From Bacteroidota bacterium (GTDB lineage: Bacteria > Bacteroidota > Bacteroidia > UKL13-3), in NCBI GenBank assembly GCA_947459075.1, contig CANHBJ010000002.1, positions 1 to 53,654 on the forward strand: a stretch of DNA of 53,654 nucleotides, written 5' to 3'. The notes below the pieces were generated by a model, which was given only the letters and a program-made list of their open reading frames with translations, made no database searches and had not been told where the DNA came from. The position numbers were made by a program, and so were the translations under genes. Numbering within the stretch: position 1 is the stretch's first letter; each line of letters starts with the position of its first letter. Shown piece after piece: positions 6,793-27,987 of this stretch.

Positions 6793-9700
6793 TTGAAAAA
6801 AGGCATACGTTTATATTGGTTTTTATTTATTGCAGGCTGCTTAGCTCTTGTTGGGCTTGGCGTATATGAGCAGCTACAAATCAAAAATGTAGATAATCAA
6901 ATACAACAAGGTTACGAGAAAACACAGCGTATTATACGTGCAAAAGAACTTGGTTTTGTTGAGCTTATTCAAAACGAGTTGGTTATGGACTCGTCTAACC
7001 TACAACGTAATTGGAGTAGCTTAAACAAGCTTTTAAAAAAAGAGCAGTGTAATTTGTTTATTACACAAAACGATACCCTAAAGTATTGGAGTGATAATGA
7101 AATAAATATTAAACAAGTTAAGTTTAAAGATAATAGTTACCACAACTTTATAAAAGCACCCAATGGTTGGTATTTGGTTTATAAACAAAATAGAGGAACA
7201 TATACATACGTTTTTACCTATTTAGTAAAACATAACTTTGCATACAAAAACCAATACCTACAAAATAAATTTAGCGATGCGCTTAGTTTTTTAGAAGACG
7301 CCATTGTTATTAAAACAAAAATAAACGAAAAGTACACTGATATTTTTTCTATTGATGGTAAGTACTTGTTTTCGATACAAATATTTGCCGTAAGAGAATC
7401 AACTAGCACTTGGTTATTTATAACCATGTTGATATTACTGCTGTATTGCATTTCTCTTATTCATGTATTGGTGAGGTACTATATACGTATTTACCCGCTT
7501 TTAACTAGTGTGGTATTTTTTGGTGTATTTATATGGATACGTTCGGCAAGTACTTTATATAACATACCACATTTTATATACGACATCAAATTATTTAATG
7601 CGGGTATTTATGCTTCTTCTGTTTGGTTCCCTTCACTAGGAGATTTATTGGTTGACTCTGGAATTATTTTATGGTATTTTATATTACTTGAGAATAGAAA
7701 AAATCACAATAGGATTAAACATGCTAAAGGTACTATTTGGCCAATTATTGGTTATGGCATTTTATGTGTGTTTGCCTCAGATGCAGTATATAGTGCCATT
7801 AAAAGTTTAACCATCGACTCTCAAATATCGTTTGATATTACCCAAATATACTCCATAAATATATTTACTTATTTTGCTATTACCGTTTGCATATTGCAAT
7901 TATTGGTGGTGTATTTTATTAGCAGAAATTTTACGCGAGCCATCAAAAAACATGAAGGAAAGCGAATTTGGATTTGGTTAATTGTAGTTTGCATTGCACT
8001 GTTATATTTAGTAATAGCCAATAAATTTTTTGAACATGATATTTTCAGATATTGGTCAGTACTCACATTGGCATCAGTATTTATTGTATTTAAATTATTT
8101 ACGCCTAAACTTAATCGTTTTCAGCAATACTTTATTGTAATTGTTATTATATCTAGTTACAGTGCATTAAGCATATGGCATTGGCATAATGTGCGCGAGC
8201 GCGATAACAGAAAACTATTTGCAGTAAAACAAATATCCCAAAACGATATCACCAACGACTATTTCTTGCGTGGTATTGATAGAAAGATAAAACGAGACAA
8301 TTACATCAAAATATATTTCGAGAGTCCGTTTATTATTAAATCACAATTTGAAAAACGCATTCGTCAATTATACTTTACTGGATACTTAAGTAAATTTGAT
8401 GTACAGTTACTAGATTATGACTCATCTGGAAATCACTTTAAAGAACGTAATGAATTAAGTTACTATCAAGCCAATAAACTTTACAATCAACAACGTTTAG
8501 AATCTTTTGCAGAATCGTTTAGGTACATGCAAAACAGTGGCGATATAAAAGGCTATATTGGTAAATTTATTATAAGGGATGGCAAAAAAAGAATTGGGTA
8601 TTTATTTGTTATTCTTAAACCCAAATTAATACAAAACGAAAATAGGTTTGACGAAATTTTAGTTGAAGGTAACACTGCAAACAGAACAAAAAATAACGAA
8701 TATTCTTACGCGGTTTATAAAGATAAAAAACTAGTTTATCAAAGTGGAGATTACGCTTACAGCATCATCAACACATGGGGCGAAACCGATAATAAATTTA
8801 AATTTTTTGATGAAAACAATTATAGTCACTTATTATTTACAGATGCACAACCATTAACCGTAGTGGTAAGTAAACCTGCTAATAACTTAAGCCAAGTTAT
8901 TGGTTTGTTCTCGTTTATTTTTACCTGTTGTACAGTGGTATTAATTATGGTACTGGTGCTGTTTATTTTCTTAAATGCACAAGCGCTAAAACGCTCTTCG
9001 CTTACCAATAACAACATTATTTCTTGGCTTAGAAATAGTTTACTCAAATTAATGATGATGGATGCCAATCAAATTATTTTGATTAGAACACGCATTCAAA
9101 CATCTATTATCTTCATCGTTTTCACTACACTCATATTCAGTTCCTATTTTACCATACGCTTTACAATTGATAAGTATAACATGCGTCAAACCGACCGTTT
9201 GATGAAGAAGTTACGGAACATTGTTATCAATATTGAAAACGAACGTATAACCAATTTAAAAGGAAGAATTATAGAAGGCGAAACCGAAGCTTTTATCAAT
9301 CAAATTGCAGACTTTTACGATACTGACATTTCTTTGTATGATACCAAAGGCGAGGTAATAGCTTCCAGTATAAGTAAACTGTATGATGAGCAAATTGTAG
9401 GTCCTAAAATGCATCCACATGCTTATTTCCACCTGAATCATTTGCGCGAATCACAATATAGCCAAAATGAAAAAATTGGCGACTTAGTATTTCAAGCAGC
9501 TTATGCTCCTGTATTTAATTCCCGTAGCGAAGTAGTAGGTTATTTGCAACTACCTTATTTTAGTAAACAAATTGATTTATTAAGCGAAATCTCATCGGTA
9601 GTTATTGGATTTATTAATTTATACGTTTTGCTATTTATTATAATCGTAGTGATAGCATATTGGGTTTCAAGGAACATATCCTATCCGCTTACATTAATTC

Positions 9701-10521
9701 AGCAACGATTATCTAGTACTACTTTAGGGCATAGTAACGAGCCTATTTTATGGCAGCGTGATGATGAAATAGGTGAATTGGTTAAACAATACAACCGAAT
9801 GATTACAGAGCTAGATGCAAGTGCGCGTAAGCTAGCCGAAACAGAACGACAAGGTGCTTGGCGAGATATTGCAAGACAAATTGCACATGAAATTAAAAAC
9901 CCACTAACACCAATGAAACTAAGCGTACAGCACTTACAGCGAGCGTATGCTAACAATGATAATAACATCGGAGATAAAATTACTCGTACCTCGAACTTAT
10001 TAATCGCTCAAATTGATGTGCTTTCTGAATTAGCCAATGAGTTTTCATCATACGCAAAGATGCCTGCTCCCACATATGAAAACATTAAGCTAAAAGATAC
10101 TTTATCGCAACTGGTTGATTTATACTCACAGGGTAATGAGCATAAAATAAGTTTACATTGTGCCGAAAACCTAACCATATCTTTTGATGCAGGATATTTT
10201 AATCGTACCATATCAAATTTATTAAAAAACGCAATACAGGCAATGCCTGAACATGAAATTGGTGAAATACAAATTGATGTGATAAACCACAATGAAAACA
10301 TTAAAATTTTCGTTAAGGATAATGCATCTGGTATGACAGAAGAACAAGCTAAAAATGTTTTCACACCTTATTATAGCACTAAAATTAGTGGCATGGGGCT
10401 TGGTTTGCCTATTGTAAAAAATATGATAGAAAGCGGTGGTGGTAGTATCTCATTTAAAACACAATTGGAAGTGGGTACTGAATTTTGTATTACTTTACCA
10501 AAACAACAACATGTGGCATGA
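6793..10521 (+). CDS. Large multi-pass sensor histidine kinase (1242 aa)
   Basis: TTG start. Many TM segments interleaved with two long extracytoplasmic regions. C-terminal H-box RQIAHEIKNPLTPM, N-box NLLKNAIQAM and G-boxes DNASGM / GMGLGLPIV. No receiver domain and no adjacent response regulator. Confidence 0.9.
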   Translation: MKKGIRLYWFLFIAGCLALVGLGVYEQLQIKNVDNQIQQGYEKTQRIIRAKELGFVELIQNELVMDSSNLQRNWSSLNKLLKKEQCNLFITQNDTLKYWSDNEINIKQVKFKDNSYHNFIKAPNGWYLVYKQNRGTYTYVFTYLVKHNFAYKNQYLQNKFSDALSFLEDAIVIKTKINEKYTDIFSIDGKYLFSIQIFAVRESTSTWLFITMLILLLYCISLIHVLVRYYIRIYPLLTSVVFFGVFIWIRSASTLYNIPHFIYDIKLFNAGIYASSVWFPSLGDLLVDSGIILWYFILLENRKNHNRIKHAKGTIWPIIGYGILCVFASDAVYSAIKSLTIDSQISFDITQIYSINIFTYFAITVCILQLLVVYFISRNFTRAIKKHEGKRIWIWLIVVCIALLYLVIANKFFEHDIFRYWSVLTLASVFIVFKLFTPKLNRFQQYFIVIVIISSYSALSIWHWHNVRERDNRKLFAVKQISQNDITNDYFLRGIDRKIKRDNYIKIYFESPFIIKSQFEKRIRQLYFTGYLSKFDVQLLDYDSSGNHFKERNELSYYQANKLYNQQRLESFAESFRYMQNSGDIKGYIGKFIIRDGKKRIGYLFVILKPKLIQNENRFDEILVEGNTANRTKNNEYSYAVYKDKKLVYQSGDYAYSIINTWGETDNKFKFFDENNYSHLLFTDAQPLTVVVSKPANNLSQVIGLFSFIFTCCTVVLIMVLVLFIFLNAQALKRSSLTNNNIISWLRNSLLKLMMMDANQIILIRTRIQTSIIFIVFTTLIFSSYFTIRFTIDKYNMRQTDRLMKKLRNIVINIENERITNLKGRIIEGETEAFINQIADFYDTDISLYDTKGEVIASSISKLYDEQIVGPKMHPHAYFHLNHLRESQYSQNEKIGDLVFQAAYAPVFNSRSEVVGYLQLPYFSKQIDLLSEISSVVIGFINLYVLLFIIIVVIAYWVSRNISYPLTLIQQRLSSTTLGHSNEPILWQRDDEIGELVKQYNRMITELDASARKLAETERQGAWRDIARQIAHEIKNPLTPMKLSVQHLQRAYANNDNNIGDKITRTSNLLIAQIDVLSELANEFSSYAKMPAPTYENIKLKDTLSQLVDLYSQGNEHKISLHCAENLTISFDAGYFNRTISNLLKNAIQAMPEHEIGEIQIDVINHNENIKIFVKDNASGMTEEQAKNVFTPYYSTKISGMGLGLPIVKNMIESGGGSISFKTQLEVGTEFCITLPKQQHVA

Positions 10522-19748: not shown

Positions 19749-19775
19749 AAGCCACACTTTTAGTGTGGCTTTTTA
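19749..19775 (+). terminator. Rho-independent terminator after serS
   Basis: GCCACAC (19751-19757) / GTGTGGC (19763-19769) followed by a T5 run. Confidence 0.75.
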
Positions 19776-19844: not shown

Positions 19845-20417
19845 ATGCTTAATGATAGAGAGTTAATTGAAGCTATATTAGGTGGTGACGAAGCCGCTTT
19901 TAAAACGCTTTATAACATGTACACAAGCATGGTATATAACACTGCTTTAAGTATTTTGCAACAACAATCAGAAGCAGAAGATATTACCCAAGATGTATTT
20001 ATAGAAATACATAAATCAATTGGAAAATTTAGACAAGAATCGACCTTAAAAACCTGGATATATAGAATAACCATAACCAAATGTTACGATTATTTAAAGA
20101 GACAAAAAACTAAAAAAAGGTTTGCCCAACTTACCTCACTATTTAATAATGAAAATAAGTTGGTATATGATAAACCGCATTTCGAACACCCAGGTGTTGC
20201 ACTTGAAAACAAAGAACATGCAAGTGTGTTATTTTTGGCTATAAGTAAGCTTCCTATTAAACAACAAACTGCATTTACTTTAAGTAAAATTGAACAATTA
20301 TCTTATCAAGAAATTGCAGAAATAATGAATACCACAATATCTAGTGTAGAATCGCTCCTTTTTAGGGCAACTAGAAATTTAAGAATCACGTTATCTGAAT
20401 ATTATAAAAATAAATAA
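19845..20417 (+). CDS. ECF-type RNA polymerase sigma-70 factor
   Basis: Region 2 DITQDVFIEIHKSIGKFRQESTLKTWIYRITITKCYDYL. Region 4 LSYQEIAEIMNTTISSVESLLFRATRNL. Confidence 0.9.
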   Translation: MLNDRELIEAILGGDEAAFKTLYNMYTSMVYNTALSILQQQSEAEDITQDVFIEIHKSIGKFRQESTLKTWIYRITITKCYDYLKRQKTKKRFAQLTSLFNNENKLVYDKPHFEHPGVALENKEHASVLFLAISKLPIKQQTAFTLSKIEQLSYQEIAEIMNTTISSVESLLFRATRNLRITLSEYYKNK

Positions 20418-20461
20418 ACAGTTAACGCAAGTTTTGATGCTGTTATACTTCTAAATAACAG

Positions 20462-20776
20462 ATGACTAATTCAAATAATAAAATAATTGACGATACTGTA
20501 AATAGCATACACAGTATTCAACGAGCGGAAGCATCTCCCTTTTTGTTCAATAAGATTATTAATCGTATTAAAACGGGAACACCAGAGCCAATTTATTATA
20601 CGGGAGCATGGTTTTTGCGAATTGCTGTTACAGGAGTAGTTATTATTTCACTAAATGCCATAACCATTTGGACTGTAACTAAACAACCCCAAAAACAAAT
20701 AAATGAACAATTCGAATTACATAAGATAGCACAAGAATATTTCGGCAACGAGCATGTTTCAAGTTACTTTTATTAA
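20462..20776 (+). CDS. Small single-pass membrane protein, putative anti-sigma factor
   Basis: 104 aa with one TM (WFLRIAVTGVVIISLNAITIWTV), immediately downstream of the ECF sigma gene. The role is assigned by position only. Confidence 0.5.
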   Translation: MTNSNNKIIDDTVNSIHSIQRAEASPFLFNKIINRIKTGTPEPIYYTGAWFLRIAVTGVVIISLNAITIWTVTKQPQKQINEQFELHKIAQEYFGNEHVSSYFY

Positions 20777-20785
20777 TTTATAATC

Positions 20786-21331
20786 ATGAGAATAAACAAA
20801 ACTAAACTGTTGCTTACTTTGGTTATTTTATTAACCATACTTAATGTAAGCACAATTGCTAGTATTTGGAGATTTATCGACTTCAGCACGTTATCTATGA
20901 TAACAACACATGCACCAATCGGTGGTCCGAAAGATTTTATCATTAGCAAACTTGATTTAAACGAAGAACAACAAAAAGTTTTTGAAGAACTTCGTCAGGA
21001 ACATTTTCAAGAAATGAAAAATTTACAGGATAATATCCGTATAGAAAAAGATGCCATGTACGACTTGTTAAAAAGTGACCAACCAGATACAACTGCATCA
21101 TACCAACACATTGCTCGAATAATGCAAAATGAAGAGAAACTTGAGCACATCACGTTTAATCATTTTAGAAAAGTGAGGGCAATTTGCACTGCTGAGCAAC
21201 AACAACATTTTGATGTAATTATTGATGAAGTAATGCGAATGCTAATGAGACCACCACGTCCACATGCACCTGGTGCAATGCATCAAAATAAAAATAACCA
21301 AGCCAAAGATGAACATTACCCCTTACCATAA
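20786..21331 (+). CDS. Spy/CpxP/ZraP-like periplasmic protein (LTxxQ-type helical repeats)
   Basis: N-terminal signal/anchor, LNEEQQKVFEELRQEHFQEMKNL and CTAEQQQHFDVIIDEV repeats, and a Pro/His-rich tail. Confidence 0.65.
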   Translation: MRINKTKLLLTLVILLTILNVSTIASIWRFIDFSTLSMITTHAPIGGPKDFIISKLDLNEEQQKVFEELRQEHFQEMKNLQDNIRIEKDAMYDLLKSDQPDTTASYQHIARIMQNEEKLEHITFNHFRKVRAICTAEQQQHFDVIIDEVMRMLMRPPRPHAPGAMHQNKNNQAKDEHYPLP

Positions 21332-21345
21332 ACAACTTAACTGAA

Positions 21346-21594
21346 ATGAAGTTATTAAAGAATATCGCACTAAGCGATACAGGATTTGTATTTAATCCAG
21401 GCAATGGAGATTCTTTTTCGGTAAACCCAATTGGATTGAGCATCCTAAAAGATTTACAAGAAGGCAAATCGGAAGATGCTATTAGAAACAGGGTAGTTGA
21501 AGATTACCAAACGGATAAAGAAACCATTGAAAAAGATTTATATGATTTTTTGAAAATGATTGAACAATTTAACCTCACCGATTACCATGAGTAA
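21346..21594 (+). CDS. PqqD-like small protein (RiPP-recognition-element / peptide-chaperone fold)
   Basis: 82 aa. ...GDSFSVNPIGLSILKDLQEGKSEDAIRNRVVEDYQTDKETIEKDLYDFLKMIEQ is typical of PqqD-family winged-helix proteins. Confidence 0.65.
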   Translation: MKLLKNIALSDTGFVFNPGNGDSFSVNPIGLSILKDLQEGKSEDAIRNRVVEDYQTDKETIEKDLYDFLKMIEQFNLTDYHE

Positions 21595-22633
21595 ACGGAA
21601 GATTACTATTGCTGTTTCAGGTTTAAATAACATTGACAGTCCTGGTCCCGGCATACCAGTTATTCGTGCACTCAAAGACAGCGAACTATTTGAAATTCGA
21701 ATTATTGGTTTATCATACGACACAATGGAACCGGGAATTTATATGCATGATTTGGTAGATAAAACATACCAAATACCGCTACCATCAGCCGGTCAACAAA
21801 GTTTAATTACTCGTTTAACATACATACATCAGCAAGAAAAAATTGATGTATTAATTCCCAACTTTGATGCGGAATTGTTTAACTTCATAAAACTTCAAGA
21901 CATGCTAAAAAAAATGGGTATAGATACATTTTTGCCCACACTAGAGCAGTTTGAAGAAAGACAGAAATGGGCTTTAAATACTTTTGGAGAAAAGTATGGC
22001 ATTAAGGTGCCAAAAAGTAAACAAATTAATAGTACAGCCGAAATACATGCATTAACACATGAATTCGGCTATCCATTAGTAGTTAAAGGCAAATTTTATG
22101 ATGCAACAGTTGCCTATTCACCAGATCAAGCCATGGCAGCATTTAACAAAATAAGCAGCAAGTGGGGATTACCTATAATAATACAACAATATACACCAGG
22201 AATAGAGGTAAACCTTACTGGAATTGGCGATGGAAAAGGAAATTTAATTGGTGCTGTGCCAATGCGCAAAACATATATAACAGATAAGGGCAAAGCATGG
22301 GCTGGTATAGCTTTAGAAGACGAAACCCTTATGAATATTGCTCGCAACATGTTAAAAGGAAATAAATGGAGAGGTGGTTTTGAATTGGAAATGATAAAAA
22401 CTGATAAGCGAGAATATTATTTGATTGAGATTAATCCGAGATTTCCAGCATGGGTTTATTTGGCAGTTGGTGCAGGGCAAAACCATCCCGAAGCACTTGT
22501 TAGGCTTGCGCTTGGCGAAGATGTAAAGCCTTATGAAAGCTATGAATCTGGTAAAATGTTTATCCGATATTCATACGATAAAATTGTTGACCTGAAAGAA
22601 TTTGAAACCATTTCTACCCTAGGTGAATTATAA
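21587..22633 (+). CDS. ATP-grasp carboxylate-amine ligase (pre-ATP-grasp + ATP-grasp)
   Basis: I chose the ATG at 21587, which overlaps the PqqD-like gene by 8 nt. YPLVVKGKFYDA, IIQQYTPGIE and YYLIEINPRFPAW (the E-x-N Mg/ATP motif). No signal peptide. Confidence 0.8.
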   Translation: MSKRKITIAVSGLNNIDSPGPGIPVIRALKDSELFEIRIIGLSYDTMEPGIYMHDLVDKTYQIPLPSAGQQSLITRLTYIHQQEKIDVLIPNFDAELFNFIKLQDMLKKMGIDTFLPTLEQFEERQKWALNTFGEKYGIKVPKSKQINSTAEIHALTHEFGYPLVVKGKFYDATVAYSPDQAMAAFNKISSKWGLPIIIQQYTPGIEVNLTGIGDGKGNLIGAVPMRKTYITDKGKAWAGIALEDETLMNIARNMLKGNKWRGGFELEMIKTDKREYYLIEINPRFPAWVYLAVGAGQNHPEALVRLALGEDVKPYESYESGKMFIRYSYDKIVDLKEFETISTLGEL

Positions 22634-22651
22634 CGAATTAGAAAAAAACAG

Positions 22652-24028
22652 ATGAAAAAGCAAATTTACGAACGCCCCTTAATACAAAGAATCAATACTG
22701 GAATGATGAATAAATTCGGTACCAAAACAGAATATGCACCTGTAAGTCATATTGATGGTTTGGCAGTAAAAGATTTGATAAATGAATACGGATCTCCCCT
22801 ATTTGTTCTAAGTGAGGAAACCATAAGAAACACATATAGAGATGCTGTTCGTGCATTTAAAACTAGATATCCCAAAGTGCAATTCGCATGGAGTTATAAA
22901 ACCAATTACATCAATGCGGTATGCAATATATTCCATCAAGAAGGATCATGGGCAGAAGTTGTTTCTGGGTTTGAATACCAAAAAGCAATTAACAACGGAG
23001 TACCTGGACCAAAAATTATTTTTAACGGACCTGACAAAAGTGATGATGATTTAAGACTTGCAATAACTAATAACTCACCTATCCACATTGATCATCTTGA
23101 TGAACTTTATCGTTTAACTGAGTTAGCCGAAGAAATGAATAAACGACCTAATGTTGCTATTCGCGTAAATATGGATACGGGTATTTATCCAATGTGGGAT
23201 CGTTTTGGATTTAACTACGAAAACGGACAAGCATGGGATGCAATCAATAAAATAATTTTAGGCAATAGACTTGAGTTAATTGGTGTTCATTGTCACATCG
23301 GTACTTTCATGTTATCGCCTCAAGCATATGCTACAGCAGCTTATAAGTTATCTGATTTGGCATTGGGAATAAAAAAGAAATTCGGCAAAACAATTCAATA
23401 CATCGATATGGGTGGAGGTTTTGCATCTAAAAATACGTTGAAGGGTTCATTTCTTCCGGGTGCCGACACCACTCCTACCATAGATCAATTTGCAGAATCT
23501 ATTACCACAGCACTACTAAATGCAGGATTTACCGAAAGTGACTTACCACTTCTAATTTTAGAAACAGGTAGGGCACTAATTGATGAGGCAGGTTATTTAT
23601 TGGGAAGCGTGCTAGCGAACAAACGCTTAAGCGATGGAAGAAGAGCTACCATTATGGATTTTGGTGTAAATATTTTGTTCACCTCTTTTTGGTACGATCA
23701 TAAAATTAGCCCTGCGCAAGAATTTAGTTCTTATACAGAAGACACAGTAATGTATGGCCCATTATGTATGAATATTGATGTAGTAAGAAGTCATATTACC
23801 TTGCCACCATTAAGAAAAGAAGACCATGTAGTTGTACATACAGTTGGTGCATATAACATGACACAATGGATGCAGTTTATTGCTATGCGTCCAGCTGTAG
23901 TAATCATTGGTACTGATGGAAAATCGCATTTAATTCGCAGTAAAGAAACGATAGAAAATATAGAATCGAATGAAGTTATGCCAGATTTTTTAAGAAAGCA
24001 TGAACTAGCATCTGGTATTTTAAAATAA
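22652..24028 (+). CDS. Fold-type III PLP-dependent decarboxylase (Orn/DAP/Arg decarboxylase family)
   Basis: SPLFVLSEETIR..., FAWSYKTN (Schiff-base Lys context), IDMGGGFAS (phosphate loop), YGPLCMNIDVV (Cys-x-x-x-D region) and VGAYNMTQ. Confidence 0.8.
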   Translation: MKKQIYERPLIQRINTGMMNKFGTKTEYAPVSHIDGLAVKDLINEYGSPLFVLSEETIRNTYRDAVRAFKTRYPKVQFAWSYKTNYINAVCNIFHQEGSWAEVVSGFEYQKAINNGVPGPKIIFNGPDKSDDDLRLAITNNSPIHIDHLDELYRLTELAEEMNKRPNVAIRVNMDTGIYPMWDRFGFNYENGQAWDAINKIILGNRLELIGVHCHIGTFMLSPQAYATAAYKLSDLALGIKKKFGKTIQYIDMGGGFASKNTLKGSFLPGADTTPTIDQFAESITTALLNAGFTESDLPLLILETGRALIDEAGYLLGSVLANKRLSDGRRATIMDFGVNILFTSFWYDHKISPAQEFSSYTEDTVMYGPLCMNIDVVRSHITLPPLRKEDHVVVHTVGAYNMTQWMQFIAMRPAVVIIGTDGKSHLIRSKETIENIESNEVMPDFLRKHELASGILK

Positions 24029-24034
24029 CTACTA

Positions 24035-26224
24035 TTGAAAAGCCATATTCAATTATTCGGAAAAGGATATATAAATAGTTATTCTCAATTGTTTTTCGCA
24101 GATAGTAAAACATTTGCGTGGTTACTATTGCTATCTTCTTTTGTTAATCCCATTATGGGAATTAGCGGGGCCATAGCAACCATTTCTGGTTTGGTTTTTT
24201 CGTATTGGATTGGATTAAATAGGACACACATTGGCCATGGAGTATATAGTTATAATGCGTTAATGATTGGCCTCGTTTTAGGGTCGCAATATCAAATAAC
24301 ATCATCATATTTGCTGCTGTTATTGGTTGCTGCAATTCTTAGTGTAATTATTACAGTTTGGTTCAATACAGTTTTGGCCAAATACCAATTACCATCGTTA
24401 AGTTTATCTTTTCTATTTAGCCTTTGGTTAATAACTATTGGGCTTCGTACATATAATAACATCACACTTAGCGAAAGTAGTATATACAGATACAACGATT
24501 TGTATTTATTAGGTGGCGATCAATTATTAAACTTCATGAATAAGTTGGAGGAAAATCAACTTCCTGAAGTGGTTGATGTATATTTAAAATCACTCTCAGC
24601 AGTATTCTTCCAATACAATATCATTGCAGGCTTCCTAATTTTAATTGGATTAATCATTTGGTCGAGAATTGCATTTATACTTTCCATTATTGGATTTAGT
24701 ATAGGATACCTATTTTATTTTGGCTTATCAGGAGAATTCTCTCAACTTTACTACAGTTATATTGGGTTTAACTTTATTCTTACTGCAATAGCATTAGGAG
24801 GTTATTATCTCATACCTTCACGTGCTTCAATTATGTTAGCTATTATATCAATGCCCATTATAGGCGTTTTGATCAGTGGTTTAAATGGTATTCTAATTGT
24901 ATATCAACTTCCATTATTTTCGTTACCATTTGTTATCACAGTATTAATTGTTTTGATGTTATTAAGTCAAAGGACTTACCTGCACAGATTAATTCCTGTT
25001 ACCTATCAACATTTTTCGCCCGAAAAAAACAAGTACAACTATTCCAATAATGTCACACGATTCAAAAATAGTAAATGGGTTAATATTCAACTACCATTTT
25101 TCGGAGAGTGGTTTGTTTCGCAGGGGTATAATGGCAAAATAACACATAAAGAAAATTGGAGTGATGCATTAGATTTTGTTGTAGTGGATGAAACTAAGCA
25201 TACTTTTAAGTCACTTGGTACATCTGTTACAGACTTTTACTGTTATAACTTACCAATACTTGCACCAGCAGATGGATTTGTGGTAGAAATTGCTGATGGT
25301 ATAGAAGACAACAAGATTGGTGATGTTGATTTGATAGAAAACTGGGGAAATAGTATTGTAATTAAACATGCAGATGGCTTATATAGTAAACTATCACACC
25401 TAAAAGCGAATTCTATTCTAGTACAATTAAACGATTATGTAAGGGCAGGACAAATGTTGGCAAGCTGTGGTAGCTCTGGCAGATCGCCAGAACCACATTT
25501 GCATTTCCAGATGCAAACAACTCCTTTTATAGGATCAGCAACTTTAAGATATCAAATAAACCATTTTATAAGCAGGGTAAACGAAAAATACCAATTTCAC
25601 GAAAACGAAATACCAGAAGAAGGGGCCCAAATTCATCAACCTATAAAAACTCCATTATTAAGTAAAGCTTTACATTTTACACCTGGTCAAATAATTACAT
25701 TTGAAACCATACTGAACGCAGGAAATAAAATTAGTATAAATTGGGAATGCATGGTTGATGCATGGAATAAAACCTATTTGTATTGCCAACAAACAAAAGC
25801 ATACGCCTATTTTGTAAATGATGGTACAACATTTTATTTTACCAGTTACCACGGATCAAAAAAATCGTATTTATTTGATTTTTATCTGGCAGCTTACAAA
25901 ATTCTCTTGGGCTATTATCCTGATTTAACAATAAAAGATAGTATTGATATTGGATTATTTAATCACCCTATTTCATTGTGGTTTCAAGATATTATTGCTC
26001 CATTTTATCTTTTTAAAAAGGTAAGTTATCAGGTGAATTTTAAACAAATAGACGATATGATTGCACCTACATACATAGTTATGGAGAGTAAAATTGAAGC
26101 ATACAACTTTAACTCAAAAACAAAAGAGCGCAATTATAAATTAGTAATACAAGATGGCAAACTGATGCAAATTGTTATTAACCCAAACCAAAAATCAGCT
26201 CAAACAATAACATGTACAAACTAA
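24035..26224 (+). CDS. Fusion protein: urea-transporter-like membrane domain + M23 (LytM) peptidase domain + ~220-aa C-terminal domain of unknown function
   Basis: TTG start. The N-terminal ~320 aa are polytopic, with the UT-like signature YINSYSQLFFADSKTFAWLLLLSSFVNPIMGISGAIATISG. The M23 core is GNSIVIKHADGLYSKLSHLKANSILVQLNDYVRAGQMLASCGSSGRSPEPHLHFQM. Confidence 0.65.
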   Translation: MKSHIQLFGKGYINSYSQLFFADSKTFAWLLLLSSFVNPIMGISGAIATISGLVFSYWIGLNRTHIGHGVYSYNALMIGLVLGSQYQITSSYLLLLLVAAILSVIITVWFNTVLAKYQLPSLSLSFLFSLWLITIGLRTYNNITLSESSIYRYNDLYLLGGDQLLNFMNKLEENQLPEVVDVYLKSLSAVFFQYNIIAGFLILIGLIIWSRIAFILSIIGFSIGYLFYFGLSGEFSQLYYSYIGFNFILTAIALGGYYLIPSRASIMLAIISMPIIGVLISGLNGILIVYQLPLFSLPFVITVLIVLMLLSQRTYLHRLIPVTYQHFSPEKNKYNYSNNVTRFKNSKWVNIQLPFFGEWFVSQGYNGKITHKENWSDALDFVVVDETKHTFKSLGTSVTDFYCYNLPILAPADGFVVEIADGIEDNKIGDVDLIENWGNSIVIKHADGLYSKLSHLKANSILVQLNDYVRAGQMLASCGSSGRSPEPHLHFQMQTTPFIGSATLRYQINHFISRVNEKYQFHENEIPEEGAQIHQPIKTPLLSKALHFTPGQIITFETILNAGNKISINWECMVDAWNKTYLYCQQTKAYAYFVNDGTTFYFTSYHGSKKSYLFDFYLAAYKILLGYYPDLTIKDSIDIGLFNHPISLWFQDIIAPFYLFKKVSYQVNFKQIDDMIAPTYIVMESKIEAYNFNSKTKERNYKLVIQDGKLMQIVINPNQKSAQTITCTN

Positions 26225-27372
26225 CCTCACTTTTTGTACTTTGTTTTGTATTTGTTTGTGCCAACTCACAAGTGTATTATAATTCAGGTGTAGATAAATT
26301 AATTAAAGAAGAATACAATAAAGGAAATTGGAAAAATGTAATTCAAATTACTGACAGTATTCACAAAATAGGCATTGGATACCATGAGGCCTTTGAAATG
26401 GCTGCAGATGCCGCATATATTTTAAATAAACCATTTAAACAACATGCATACTTACAATATGCATTAAACGATTTTCCAACGGATAGTGCGGTCTTATTGA
26501 AATTAGCTTATTGTTTCTGGGCAACACAACAATATTCTCATGGTAATAAAGCACAATACAAACTATTAAAAGGCGGGCAATTAAGTGAACAAAATAAAGT
26601 TAAAAATAATGTTGTAAATTTTGATTTTGGAAGTAAAATTAGCAACAATACGAACCTATATAATAATTTAAATTATGTTTCAATTGGTACAACTTTCCCT
26701 ATAAAGTATTTGCTTACTTACCATGGGATAACTTATCTAAGTCAAAATAGTTTTTATGGAGATATAGCTCAAATACAATATTACCTGAATACATCATTAG
26801 CACTAAAAAAAGGATGGAAAATTATTGGAATAATGCATTTAGCAGAATATAATCTTACTAACTATCCTTCAGATTTAATTGGCAATCAAATATTATCAGG
26901 CGAACAATACGTTTTGGGTTTAGGAACAAGTAAACTTTATAAAAATTGTTTGTTTGGAATCGATGTCATAAAATCTAATTTAAACTATATGGATCAACTC
27001 CAAATAGTTTCGGGAATAACATACTACCCATTAAATAACACCAAGCTTATACTTAATATAGATGCAAATTACCTTACCGAAAAATCACACATCATTACAT
27101 CTTATAACCTTAATTACTCACCAATTAATTCATTAAATATAATTGTGAGCTATTTACAAGCCAATACACGTAACTTTACAGAACAGAATGCATTTTTACT
27201 TCATAACTCTTTTGATATTACCCGAAATAAATACGCATTATCCGTAACAAAACATATTTCAAAAACCATACGTATTTCAGGAATATTTCAATTGGAAAAT
27301 AAAATAGAAACAATAAGTAACACCAATTATCAATACAAAATATTAGGTTTAGGTGTAAAAAATATTTTTTAA
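26212..27372 (+). CDS. Predicted outer-membrane beta-barrel protein with N-terminal helical region
   Basis: Overlaps the preceding gene by 13 nt. Signal peptide MYKLTSLFVLCFVFVCANSQ. The C-terminal two-thirds consists of alternating-pattern strands ending ...LGLGVKNIF (terminal Phe). Confidence 0.6.
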   Translation: MYKLTSLFVLCFVFVCANSQVYYNSGVDKLIKEEYNKGNWKNVIQITDSIHKIGIGYHEAFEMAADAAYILNKPFKQHAYLQYALNDFPTDSAVLLKLAYCFWATQQYSHGNKAQYKLLKGGQLSEQNKVKNNVVNFDFGSKISNNTNLYNNLNYVSIGTTFPIKYLLTYHGITYLSQNSFYGDIAQIQYYLNTSLALKKGWKIIGIMHLAEYNLTNYPSDLIGNQILSGEQYVLGLGTSKLYKNCLFGIDVIKSNLNYMDQLQIVSGITYYPLNNTKLILNIDANYLTEKSHIITSYNLNYSPINSLNIIVSYLQANTRNFTEQNAFLLHNSFDITRNKYALSVTKHISKTIRISGIFQLENKIETISNTNYQYKILGLGVKNIF

Positions 27373-27381
27373 TAAACATAT

Positions 27382-27987
27382 ATGAAAATTTTAATTTTAA
27401 CATTTTTAATGCTTGGCATAAATCCAATATTTGCTCAAGAAACAACACTACAAACAGCATTCGAAAAAAGTTATATTTCAGAAAAAATCGGAAATTTTAA
27501 TGAAGCTAGCAAAGCATTAATGCAGGTATACAATGAAAAGTCATATGAATTAAATTTACGTTTGGGTTATTTAAAATATATGGCTGGTGCATATAATGAT
27601 GCCATTATTTTTTATAAAAAAGCAATACAATTAATGCCATATGCTATTGAACCGCGATTAGGTTATGTATACCCAGCTGCAGCTCTAAATAAATGGGATG
27701 ATGTGATATTACAATATCAGGCTATACTAAAAATTGACCCTAAAAATAGTACCGTTAATTATAAATTAGGTGTTATTTACTACAACCGAAAAAAATATGC
27801 ACAAGCAAATAGTTTATTTGAAAAGGTAGTAAATCTTTATCCGTTTGATTATGATGGAATATTGATGTATGCATGGACTAATTACCGCATGGGCAAATTA
27901 CCTCAAGCAAAACTATTATTTAAAAAGGTATTGTTAATTTCTCCTAATGATAAATCAGCATTAGAAGGATTAGCCCTCATAAAATAA
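27382..27987 (+). CDS. Secreted TPR-repeat protein
   Basis: Signal peptide MKILILTFLMLGINPIFAQ. TPR-like repeats (AIIFYKKAIQLMPYAIEP, YQAILKIDPKNSTVNYKLGVIYYNRKKYAQANSLFEKVVNLYP). Confidence 0.75.
   Translation: MKILILTFLMLGINPIFAQETTLQTAFEKSYISEKIGNFNEASKALMQVYNEKSYELNLRLGYLKYMAGAYNDAIIFYKKAIQLMPYAIEPRLGYVYPAAALNKWDDVILQYQAILKIDPKNSTVNYKLGVIYYNRKKYAQANSLFEKVVNLYPFDYDGILMYAWTNYRMGKLPQAKLLFKKVLLISPNDKSALEGLALIK

Follow-up and report, generated by a model that had tools for sequence, protein, structure and literature searches.

In the 53,654-nt contig CANHBJ010000002.1 of assembly GCA_947459075.1 (Bacteroidota bacterium, UKL13-3), which was analyzed at its full length and is called the window here, a six-gene operon at positions 21346-27987 encodes, in order, a PqqD-family RiPP recognition element (RRE; RiPP, a peptide synthesized by the ribosome and then modified post-translationally), an ATP-grasp ligase, a pyridoxal phosphate (PLP)-dependent decarboxylase, a fusion of an inner-membrane channel of the urea-transporter (UT) family with an M23 peptidase domain, a likely outer-membrane protein, and a TPR protein. 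The first three products seem to form the cytoplasmic catalytic core of a widespread, uncharacterised six-gene system, and its RRE probably binds, in place of a separate precursor, the leader-like tail at the N-terminus of the decarboxylase itself. Judged from sequence, no other YxxP-type peptide in the system is universally conserved, and this tail covaries with the predicted binding site of the RRE.

The RRE (82 aa; 21346..21594, on the + strand, as are all window features given below) matches Pfam PF05402 at 40.3 bits (gathering score, 23.4), and its best sequence match in a phmmer search is TbiB1 (E=3e-6). An AlphaFold2 (AF2) model of the protein, with a predicted local distance difference test score (pLDDT) of 87.9, contains three helices and two beta-strands of three residues or more (14-17 and 22-25), with short bridges close to either end. 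The top Foldseek matches of this model are the lasso B1 proteins TbiB1 (TM-score, 0.85) and TfuB1 (TM-score, 0.75), both of which were solved with YxxPxL leaders. As modeled, the small protein adopts the winged-helix RRE fold, on which the preliminary description of this DNA, made from the sequence alone, had staked its interpretation of the first three genes. In RRE-leader crystal structures of LppB, Asn33 fixes the kink at the leader proline, Asp70 forms a hydrogen bond with the tyrosine hydroxyl, and Phe74 splits two pockets (PMC13381572). Homologue alignment predicts the corresponding triad in the window RRE at Asn27 (21424-21426), Asp64 (21535-21537), and Phe68 (21547-21549), with spacings of 37 and 4 residues that equal those of LppB. 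All three residues are invariant among 25 RRE homologues, and Asp64 aligns with the Asp of both TbiB1 and TfuB1. The triad is also present in five of six separately encoded RREs from distant loci, with a Glu for Asp replacement in the sixth (the RRE of the fused protein P0329 was left out of this count). By these comparisons, the RRE appears to retain a YxxP-type binding site.

The same features bear on a reading in which the PqqD-like protein is a covalent amino-acid carrier of the butirosin or LysW kind. The trio does mirror BtrI/BtrJ/BtrK in size and order, and BtrK is detectable from the decarboxylase at 97 bits. However, the small protein has an RRE fold and not that of an acyl carrier protein (ACP), it has no phosphopantetheine-type site (no PP-binding match was obtained in Pfam/NCBIfam scans), its C-terminus varies in both length and sequence, unlike the C-terminal Glu of LysW, and its conserved residues are those of noncovalent leader binding. 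A carrier role for the PqqD-like protein is, in our estimate, very improbable, and the butirosin-type tethered model, which was one of two put forward in the preliminary description, fails as it was stated.

The predicted ligand, the N-terminal tail of the decarboxylase (residues 1-33; 22652..22750), is a family-specific extension of ~20-30 aa relative to LysA and FigC, and it is conserved as strongly as the active site, with the consensus K-x-x-[YF]-E-R-P-x-I-x-K-L-N-T-G-x-M-N-K-F-G-T-R-T-E-Y-x-P. All 71 sequences compared have Glu7, Pro9, Lys21 (22712-22714), and Gly23, together with either Tyr or Phe at position 6. The leader-like segment Tyr6-Glu-Arg-Pro9-Leu-Ile11 (22667-22684) belongs to a family motif, Y-E-x-P-[LVI]-[IL], that is spaced like the leader motif of lasso peptides, YxxPx[L/V/I/F/A] (PMC10368454, PMC13381572). 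Among the seven distant loci whose contexts we examined (L082-L088), the motif reads YERPVI in L084 (Myxococcales), YEKPVL in L088, and YERPLI, YESPLI, and YQPPLI in L086, L087, and L082, respectively, three loci in which SIR2 and GNAT domains stand on the UT protein; a ligase-decarboxylase fusion, P0270, carries YVRPSI at an internal position. When PDB chains were searched by phmmer, the 33-aa tail had no match, and a likeness to leader peptides is not demonstrable by that route.

A contact between Asp64 of the RRE and Tyr6 of the tail was predicted from the LppB structures ahead of the covariation test, for which 68 paired loci were available. The pair is (Asp,Tyr) in 62 of these loci and (Ser/Ala/Tyr,Phe) in the other 6, with no mixed combinations. 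RRE position 28, which is next to Asn27, follows tail position 10 in the same manner, being Pro in 50 of the 57 loci with a nonaromatic residue at the tail position and in none of the 11 with Phe or Tyr there. These two pairs rank 7th (RRE64/tail6) and 9th (RRE28/tail10) among 37,556 inter-protein column pairs. A further covariation, between tail position 19 (Met or Pro; 22706-22708) and Phe286, Leu65, and His300 of the ligase, the first of which adjoins the EINPR motif, was rejected as contact evidence because it comes from a single 15-locus clade.

Several points weigh against docking of the RRE on the tail and against the pathway that we build on it below. The six Phe6 loci lie within one 7-tip clade, in which one (Asp,Tyr) locus is nested, implying about two coordinated events, and an aromatic residue at tail position 10 arose about three times, so that the covariation amounts to few evolutionary events. 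Taken together, the tail columns show no significant enrichment for covariation with the RRE (p=0.31). The loci with tandem ligases, L083 and L085, carry a shifted motif, YEPMxL, and YxxPx[LIV] also arises by chance within folded domains of the UT-M23 protein. Moreover, the UT pore is narrow, the nearest folds to the ligase act on free small molecules and no tether is therefore required, and an unlinked precursor could possibly lie beyond the reach of the 53-kb window.

The absence of a linked precursor is nonetheless consistent across the loci surveyed. A scan of one genome per GTDB species returned at least 596 loci with ligase matches, and the best 80 of these, all from Bacteroidota-type metagenome-assembled genomes (MAGs), were used for synteny. 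When open reading frames (ORFs) of 15-120 aa lying from -4 to +11 kb of the ligase were clustered in these 80 loci, PqqD was the only genuine conserved small gene of at least 15 aa; the other apparently conserved small-ORF families were rejected as out-of-frame shadows of conserved genes. None of the ORFs in the larger ligase-decarboxylase gaps is conserved, no small gene is called in a conserved position in the seven distant loci, and the intergenic DNA of the window holds no plausible ORF with a YxxP motif. With gaps of only 6-18 nt between the window genes, these searches agree with the preliminary description, which had found no short precursor-like ORF in or beside the operon.

These searches count against a classic RiPP pathway with its precursor encoded elsewhere, in which the RRE would present an unlinked peptide with a YxxPxL leader, the ATP-grasp enzyme would attach to it the side chain of an amino acid, that amino acid would be trimmed by the decarboxylase, and the M23 domain would serve as the leader peptidase. 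While such a pathway would suit the RRE fold with its intact leader-binding triad, as well as the presence of a peptidase domain, and while the decarboxylase clade offers a precedent for action on a peptide-borne group (MccE in microcin C; PMC7857480), precursors normally adjoin their enzymes, and none was found in either set of loci. In addition, the export part of the system is a narrow UT-type channel and not an ABC (ATP-binding cassette) or PCAT (peptidase-containing ABC transporter) exporter, SIR2, which is not a leader peptidase, takes the place of the peptidase in other phyla, and the RRE covaries with the tail of the decarboxylase. We consider this pathway unlikely, and the RiPP-like model of the preliminary description, the other of its two, does not hold in its classic form, since no precursor gene was found in the 80 Bacteroidota loci or called in a conserved position in the 7 distant ones. 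The evidence favours instead a third arrangement, which that description had not considered, with the decarboxylase tail as the probable RRE ligand. What stands of that two-model interpretation is its domain assignments, the coupling of the genes, and the notion of ligation followed by decarboxylation; a butirosin-type carrier and a linked precursor gene are not borne out in the loci examined.

Docking of the RRE on the decarboxylase would place three gene products together, and their genes are tightly joined. The ORF of the ligase (348 aa; 21587..22633), when called mechanically, opens at TTG 21560, whereas alignment with 14 homologues puts the start at ATG 21587; this start, ATGAGTAA, overlaps the PqqD stop by 8 nt. 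The decarboxylase (458 aa; 22652..24028) starts 18 nt past the ligase stop. Pfam matches and homologue alignment bear out the PqqD-like, ATP-grasp, and diaminopimelate (DAP)-decarboxylase-like assignments of the preliminary description together with their coordinates, and the fixed starts confirm the overlap and the gap that it had reported. Its proposal of translational coupling is strengthened by the finding that in 61 of 76 loci the PqqD ORF runs into that of the ligase, with gaps of 34 nt or less in the others, and by the existence of a PqqD-ATP-grasp fusion. It had missed the three further conserved genes that extend the operon to 27987.

The order PqqD, ligase, decarboxylase, UT-M23, secreted protein of 430-505 aa, and TPR protein is kept in the best 80 of the at least 596 loci. 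Identity to the window proteins in this set is 63-96% for the ligase, 60-98% for the decarboxylase, 34-94% for PqqD, and 34-91% for UT-M23. Relatives of the ligase scoring at or below 1e-5 number 7,355, with identities of 70% or more throughout the top 120. An exhaustive search over 1.84 billion representatives returned 3,056 ligase relatives, among which tandem double ATP-grasps of ~710 aa are numerous and natural fusions occur, P0329 joining PqqD to the ATP-grasp domain and P0270 joining the ATP-grasp domain to the alanine-racemase-fold (AR-fold) decarboxylase. Since the ligase and the decarboxylase are both syntenic and found fused, they are predicted to act together, and since the RRE and ligase ORFs overlap and are likewise found fused, the RRE is predicted to belong physically with the ligase. 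The preliminary description's idea of coupled ligation and decarboxylation thus gains from the synteny in the 80 loci and the 7 distant loci, as well as from these Rosetta-stone fusions.

Among the distant loci, L084 (a Myxococcales MAG) and L088 (an unclassified metagenome contig) have the layout of the window, UT-M23 included. L083, L085, and L086 come from Rokubacteria and Nitrospinota MAGs, and L082 and L087 are two further contigs. L083 and L085 encode a secreted TPR protein along with PqqD, a tandem ligase, the decarboxylase, and a UT-SIR2 protein. In L082, L086, and L087, the TPR protein is a large one, PqqD is either free or fused, the ligase is accompanied by a paralogue, and the decarboxylase is joined by a UT-SIR2-GNAT protein. 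Outside Bacteroidota, the second ligase module is thus either tandem-fused (8001-10139 in both L083 and L085) or a separate paralogue (L082, 4980-5852; L086, 9079-10188; L087, 4229-5110). The paralogue is truncated in L082 (290 aa) and L087 (293 aa), the L082 copy being without ~60 residues of the central ATP-binding region, and these truncated copies may be noncatalytic partners. In the Myxococcota, Rokubacteria, and Nitrospinota loci, the core has related secreted TPR proteins of 214-906 aa at its flanks. Taken across this set, the invariant core appears to comprise the RRE, one or more ATP-grasp enzymes, the decarboxylase, and a UT protein with a variable C-terminus drawn from amide-bond enzymes, with a secreted TPR protein in most loci. 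Some loci have extra genes inserted, among them those for a dioxygenase bearing a secretion tail, a cytochrome c, and an LRR protein as well as IF-2B-like genes; these were rejected as sporadic.

Two Bacteroidales-type loci carry the IF-2B-family gene (PF01008, ribose-1,5-bisphosphate/methylthioribose-1-phosphate isomerase-like) between the decarboxylase and UT-M23 genes (L038, 12461-13369; L080, 12432-13349), an insertion that may hint at a link to sugar phosphates or methionine salvage. The MAG titles of L008, L020, L021, L022, L028, L033, and L056 are unlikely ones (e.g., Bifidobacterium breve, Bifidobacteriaceae, Chryseobacterium gleum, and Sphingobacterium thalpophilum), and such odd titles of operon-bearing GTDB records are probably naming artefacts in deposited MAG sets. 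Both the NCBIfam and the Pfam libraries were scanned, and neither holds a curated model specific for any operon protein; the literature that we searched yielded no description of this operon system.

The ligase matches Pfam PF15632 at 33.4 bits, and NCBIfam models of the PRK12767 type match it only below their cut-offs. Its EINPRF motif, which the preliminary description had read as intact along with three motifs of the decarboxylase, lies at Glu281-Phe286. In the AF2 model (pLDDT, 78), the nearest folds are those of the L-amino-acid ligases RizA and BacD, biotin carboxylases, PurD, PurK, and the orphan "CPS-like" protein 2pn1. The top 50 Foldseek matches also include carbamoyl-phosphate synthetase and none of the graspetide, RimK, or LysX clades, although a ranking of folds cannot assign the type of substrate; the rimK_fam model reaches only 18.5 bits. 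At the C-terminus of the ligase, residues 327-348 (22565-22633; ...D-x-I-V-D-L-K-E-F-E-x-I-S-T-L-G-E-L) are near-invariant in the 80 Bacteroidota loci (Glu347 in 80 of 80 and Gly346 in 79 of 80). This tail has a pLDDT below 50 despite its conservation and is not kept in most distant relatives, and it was rejected as an RRE ligand because it is unconserved outside Bacteroidota and one relative.

The decarboxylase, an AR-fold PLP enzyme (Pfam PF02784 and PF00278), has its catalytic motifs intact, namely Ser81-Tyr-Lys83-Thr-Asn with the PLP lysine (residues 81-85), Gly254-Gly-Gly-Phe257, and Pro370-Leu-Cys372-Met-Asn-Ile-Asp376. His213/His215, Glu304, and Arg307 align with the FigC PLP-contact residues His198, Glu287, and Arg290. 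Its solved relatives, by score, are FigC/FslC (7kh2; 186 bits), Methanocaldococcus jannaschii LysA (146 bits; LysA structures range over 98-146 bits), and BtrK (7ru7 and 2j66; 97 bits). The curated models fall short of their cut-offs, with 224.4 bits against 500 for FslC (NF041039), 211.2 against 297.9 for lysA (TIGR01048), and 40 against 624 for SpeA, and the NspC model gives no match. At the level of individual residues, (i) the citrate-binding Arg387 and His357 of FigC are replaced by Gln405 and Ile375; (ii) the catalytic Cys is followed by a Met, like that of FigC, and not by an acidic residue; and (iii) the specificity helix, with Thr344, Trp347, and Tyr348, has neither the Asp of ornithine/arginine enzymes nor the Arg of DAP decarboxylase, Thr344 aligning with Arg343 of M. 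jannaschii LysA, which binds the distal carboxylate. No polyamine genes were seen near the decarboxylase in the window, the 80 loci, or the 7 distant loci, and no siderophore synthetase of the NIS type (independent of nonribosomal peptide synthetases) was seen near it in the window or the 80 loci. LysA, FslC/FigC, BtrK, and polyamine decarboxylase were each rejected as its identity on account of the sub-cut-off scores, the different specificity residues, and, for BtrK, a score of only 97 bits.

These scores and residues also answer the possibility, raised in the preliminary description, that the decarboxylase is a bona fide LysA or a polyamine enzyme, in which case it would be a housekeeping enzyme with unrelated neighbours. 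The TIGR01048 match of 211 bits and a dapB gene ~8 kb downstream in the window would favour such a role, but the score is under the lysA cut-off, Thr replaces the Arg of DAP decarboxylase, Met follows the catalytic Cys, the polyamine models NspC and SpeA match either not at all or at 40 bits only, and strict synteny and fusions tie the enzyme to the ligase. We give a housekeeping role almost no credence. On sequence grounds, the decarboxylase is instead placed with the clade of FigC, SbnH, AcsE, MccE, and BtrK, enzymes that decarboxylate amino acids conjugated via their side chains (PMC7857480).

The fourth gene encodes the UT channel-M23 fusion (729 aa; 24035..26224), an architecture that a 2026 survey lists among bacterial proteins as unexplained (PMC12998343). 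Its UT domain matches Pfam UT (PF03253) at 177.7 bits over profile positions 5-290 of 292 (protein residues 13-309) and scores 108 against a cut-off of 275 with the urea_trans_yut equivalog; urea as its substrate is not established. The motif L-P-x-x-S-L-[SP]-F occurs in both UT halves, at residues 116-123 (24380-24403) and 292-299 (~24908-24931). Canonical urea transporters have L-P-x-x-T-x-P-F, and the Ser for Thr replacement at mid-pore might alter selectivity. Peptidase_M23 (PF01551) matches at 56.7 bits over residues ~371-495 and is followed by a 230-aa C-terminal domain (500-729) without a family. His371, Asp380, His445, His455, His488, and His490 of the M23 domain are conserved in at least 95% of 62 homologues. 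All of these but His445 answer to the zinc ligands and catalytic histidines of the family (H...D, H, and HxH), and the His-to-Asp spacing is 9 residues, as against the usual HxxxD. In other phyla, SIR2 or SIR2 plus GNAT sits in place of M23 on the UT protein. SIR2 needs NAD and GNAT needs acetyl-CoA. Because of these cofactors, and because the linker past the last UT transmembrane helix is rich in Lys and Arg, the UT-fused domain, M23 included, is presumably cytoplasmic.

As the best, though still tentative, explanation of these observations, we propose an RRE-assembled pathway of ligation followed by decarboxylation, the product of which is released at a channel-fused amidase; we would put its chance of being right somewhat below even. 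The lasso-B1-type, peptide-binding RRE would travel with the ATP-grasp ligase, being coupled to it here and fused to it in some lineages, and would dock on the Y-E-x-P-[LVI]-[IL] motif of the decarboxylase tail, bringing ligase and decarboxylase into one complex. The ligase would form a side-chain-linked amino-acid amide in which the alpha-amino and alpha-carboxyl groups are left free, and the FigC/BtrK-clade decarboxylase would remove the alpha-carboxylate of this conjugate to give an amine. The cytoplasmic UT-fused amidase domain (M23 here, and SIR2 or SIR2 plus GNAT elsewhere) would then cleave or edit the amide at the membrane, and a small product would pass through the UT pore, heading for the TPR protein in the periplasm and for the outer-membrane protein. 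We infer the binding of the tail by the RRE, the side-chain linkage, the order in which the steps run, which way transport goes, and the nature of the product. The product is likely a small metabolite that contains an amine and is handled at the envelope, with stress or two-component systems in control.

A free small-molecule pathway, in which the ligase joins two free metabolites, e.g., an acid and the distal amine of Orn, Lys, or diaminobutyrate, as FigA does with a different fold, overlaps the RRE-assembled pathway except on the matter of tethering. Here the decarboxylase would yield a metabolite of the N-acyl-diamine type, the UT domain would move the product or substrate, and the PqqD-like protein would be a structural or assembly subunit. 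The fold neighbours of the ligase (L-amino-acid ligases, PurD, PurK, and biotin carboxylases) fit this pathway, as do the use of free N-acyl-ornithine by FigC, the closest characterised decarboxylase, and a UT pore suited to small solutes, and docking of the RRE on the tail would fit simple substrate channelling. However, M23, SIR2, and GNAT are typical enzymes of peptide and protein amides, tail residues 17-30, including Lys21, are conserved like the docking motif, which suggests more than docking, and the citrate-binding residues of FigC are absent. We regard this pathway as possible but rather doubtful.

The conservation of the tail past its docking motif is also the starting point of a bolder version of our proposal, in which the tail would be both the leader and the core of a self-scaffolded, RiPP-like small-molecule factory. 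The RRE would bind Y-E-x-P-x-I, and the ATP-grasp enzyme would acylate Lys21, 15 residues downstream, with the side-chain carboxylate of an amino acid. The tethered amino acid would swing into the decarboxylase site, either in cis or across a dimer, and lose its alpha-carboxylate, and a UT-fused N-epsilon-acyl-lysine deacylase or isopeptidase (SIR2 or M23) would free the product at the channel mouth. SIR2 enzymes deacylate lysine and M23 enzymes can have isopeptidase activity, which would make the two natural equivalents. If true, this version would explain the absence of a precursor, the interchange of SIR2 and M23, the invariant tail beyond the docking motif, and the lineages with two ligases, where the second module could perform a second ligation as BtrJ does. 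Counter to Lys21 as the acceptor, the fused representative P0270 has Arg at this position, and we hold this version to be distinctly improbable.

The last two genes of the operon encode envelope proteins. The first of these, a secreted protein of 386 aa with a signal peptide (26212..27372), has no Pfam or NCBIfam match, and its homologues give weak TPR matches; 61 loci have a gene for 430-505 aa in the same position, at 22-33% identity. Because of its sequence pattern and C-terminal Phe, it is probably an outer-membrane beta-barrel with a TPR-like N-terminus. The second, a periplasmic TPR protein of 201 aa with a signal peptide (27382..27987), matches several TPR Pfam families and is conserved in 58 loci. 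PADLOC defence models gave no match among the six operon proteins.

Upstream of PqqD, and separated from it by 15 nt, lie genes for an extracytoplasmic function (ECF) sigma factor, a membrane anti-sigma-like protein (104 aa), and a Spy/CpxP-like periplasmic protein of the LTXXQ type (19845..21331), as assigned by Pfam and NCBIfam matches. From this trio to the end of the operon, the genes are spaced by gaps of 15, 18, 6, and 9 nt, in addition to the PqqD-ligase overlap and a 13-nt overlap between the UT-M23 and secreted-protein genes. The sole strong terminator-like hairpin (19749-19771; 10-bp stem) lies after serS and before the ECF trio, and because no other strong site of this kind intervenes, the nine genes probably form one transcript in the source organism. 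This arrangement suggests that the operon is under envelope-stress control in the source lineage. The sigma/anti-sigma/Spy trio is lineage-specific and not kept at other loci, where the regulators are LytTR with a histidine kinase (26 loci), AraC-type (17), or ECF sigma (6), with sigma-54 at some distant loci. Rfam searches found no riboswitch in the window or in 8 loci examined, and a tRNA gene search found none. Elsewhere in the window, a stretch of 1,051 nt (1387-2437) is devoid of tRNAs and, on both strands, of ORFs of at least 100 aa, and Rfam has no match to it at gathering thresholds.

Each of the known systems closest to this operon shares a part of its logic. With lasso B1 proteins (TbiB1/TbiA and TfuB1/TfuA) and the related LppB/LppA system it shares the fold of the small protein, the Asn/Asp/Phe triad at the same spacing, an RRE that has its own gene and is coupled to an enzyme forming amides at the expense of ATP, the presence of a peptidase, and a likely Y-x-x-P-x-[LI] ligand near an N-terminus. 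Unlike those systems, the operon lacks a separate gene for a precursor, a 458-aa enzyme carries the motif, and the partners are an ATP-grasp ligase and a PLP decarboxylase instead of a B2 protease and an Asn-synthetase-like cyclase, with no macrolactam logic. The butirosin system likewise pairs an ATP-grasp ligation with an AR-fold decarboxylase that acts on a side-chain-tethered amino acid, with a small protein alongside. There, however, the small protein is a phosphopantetheinylated ACP, not an RRE, BtrK is more distant from our decarboxylase than FigC is, and the operon has no equivalents of BtrH, BtrG, or BtrO and adds the UT-amidase fusion, the TPR protein, and the outer-membrane-like protein.

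The rhizoferrin enzymes FigA/FigC (FslA/FslC in Francisella) also ligate first and then decarboxylate the conjugate, and they share the Cys-Met loop and the lack of an acidic specificity-helix residue, but their ligase is an NIS synthetase and not an ATP-grasp enzyme, and the operon has neither a major facilitator superfamily exporter nor a siderophore context. In the LysW/LysX system, an ATP-grasp enzyme loads an amino acid on a small protein for tethered processing and release by a metallopeptidase; our ligase shows no specific similarity to the RimK/LysX type, our small protein has no conserved C-terminal Glu, and any tether would be on the decarboxylase tail. In the borosin enzyme OphMA, the enzyme's own chain contains the peptide on which it acts, with a C-terminal core that is methylated and excised. 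The tail proposed here differs in being N-terminal and leader-like, and its covalent modification is hypothetical.

There is a realistic chance that recognition of an enzyme's own tail by an RRE is a new principle. If true, this would be the first RRE to have the tail of a pathway enzyme as its ligand in place of a free precursor; it would extend RRE biology from the presentation of substrates to enzyme assembly and self-scaffolding, and it would explain some of the precursor-less "orphan" RREs met in genome mining. The system in question is widespread, being present in at least 596 species genomes and in several phyla. It also supplies a genomic context for bacterial UT-M23 fusions, and in it the partner domain of UT is interchangeable among amide-bond enzymes.

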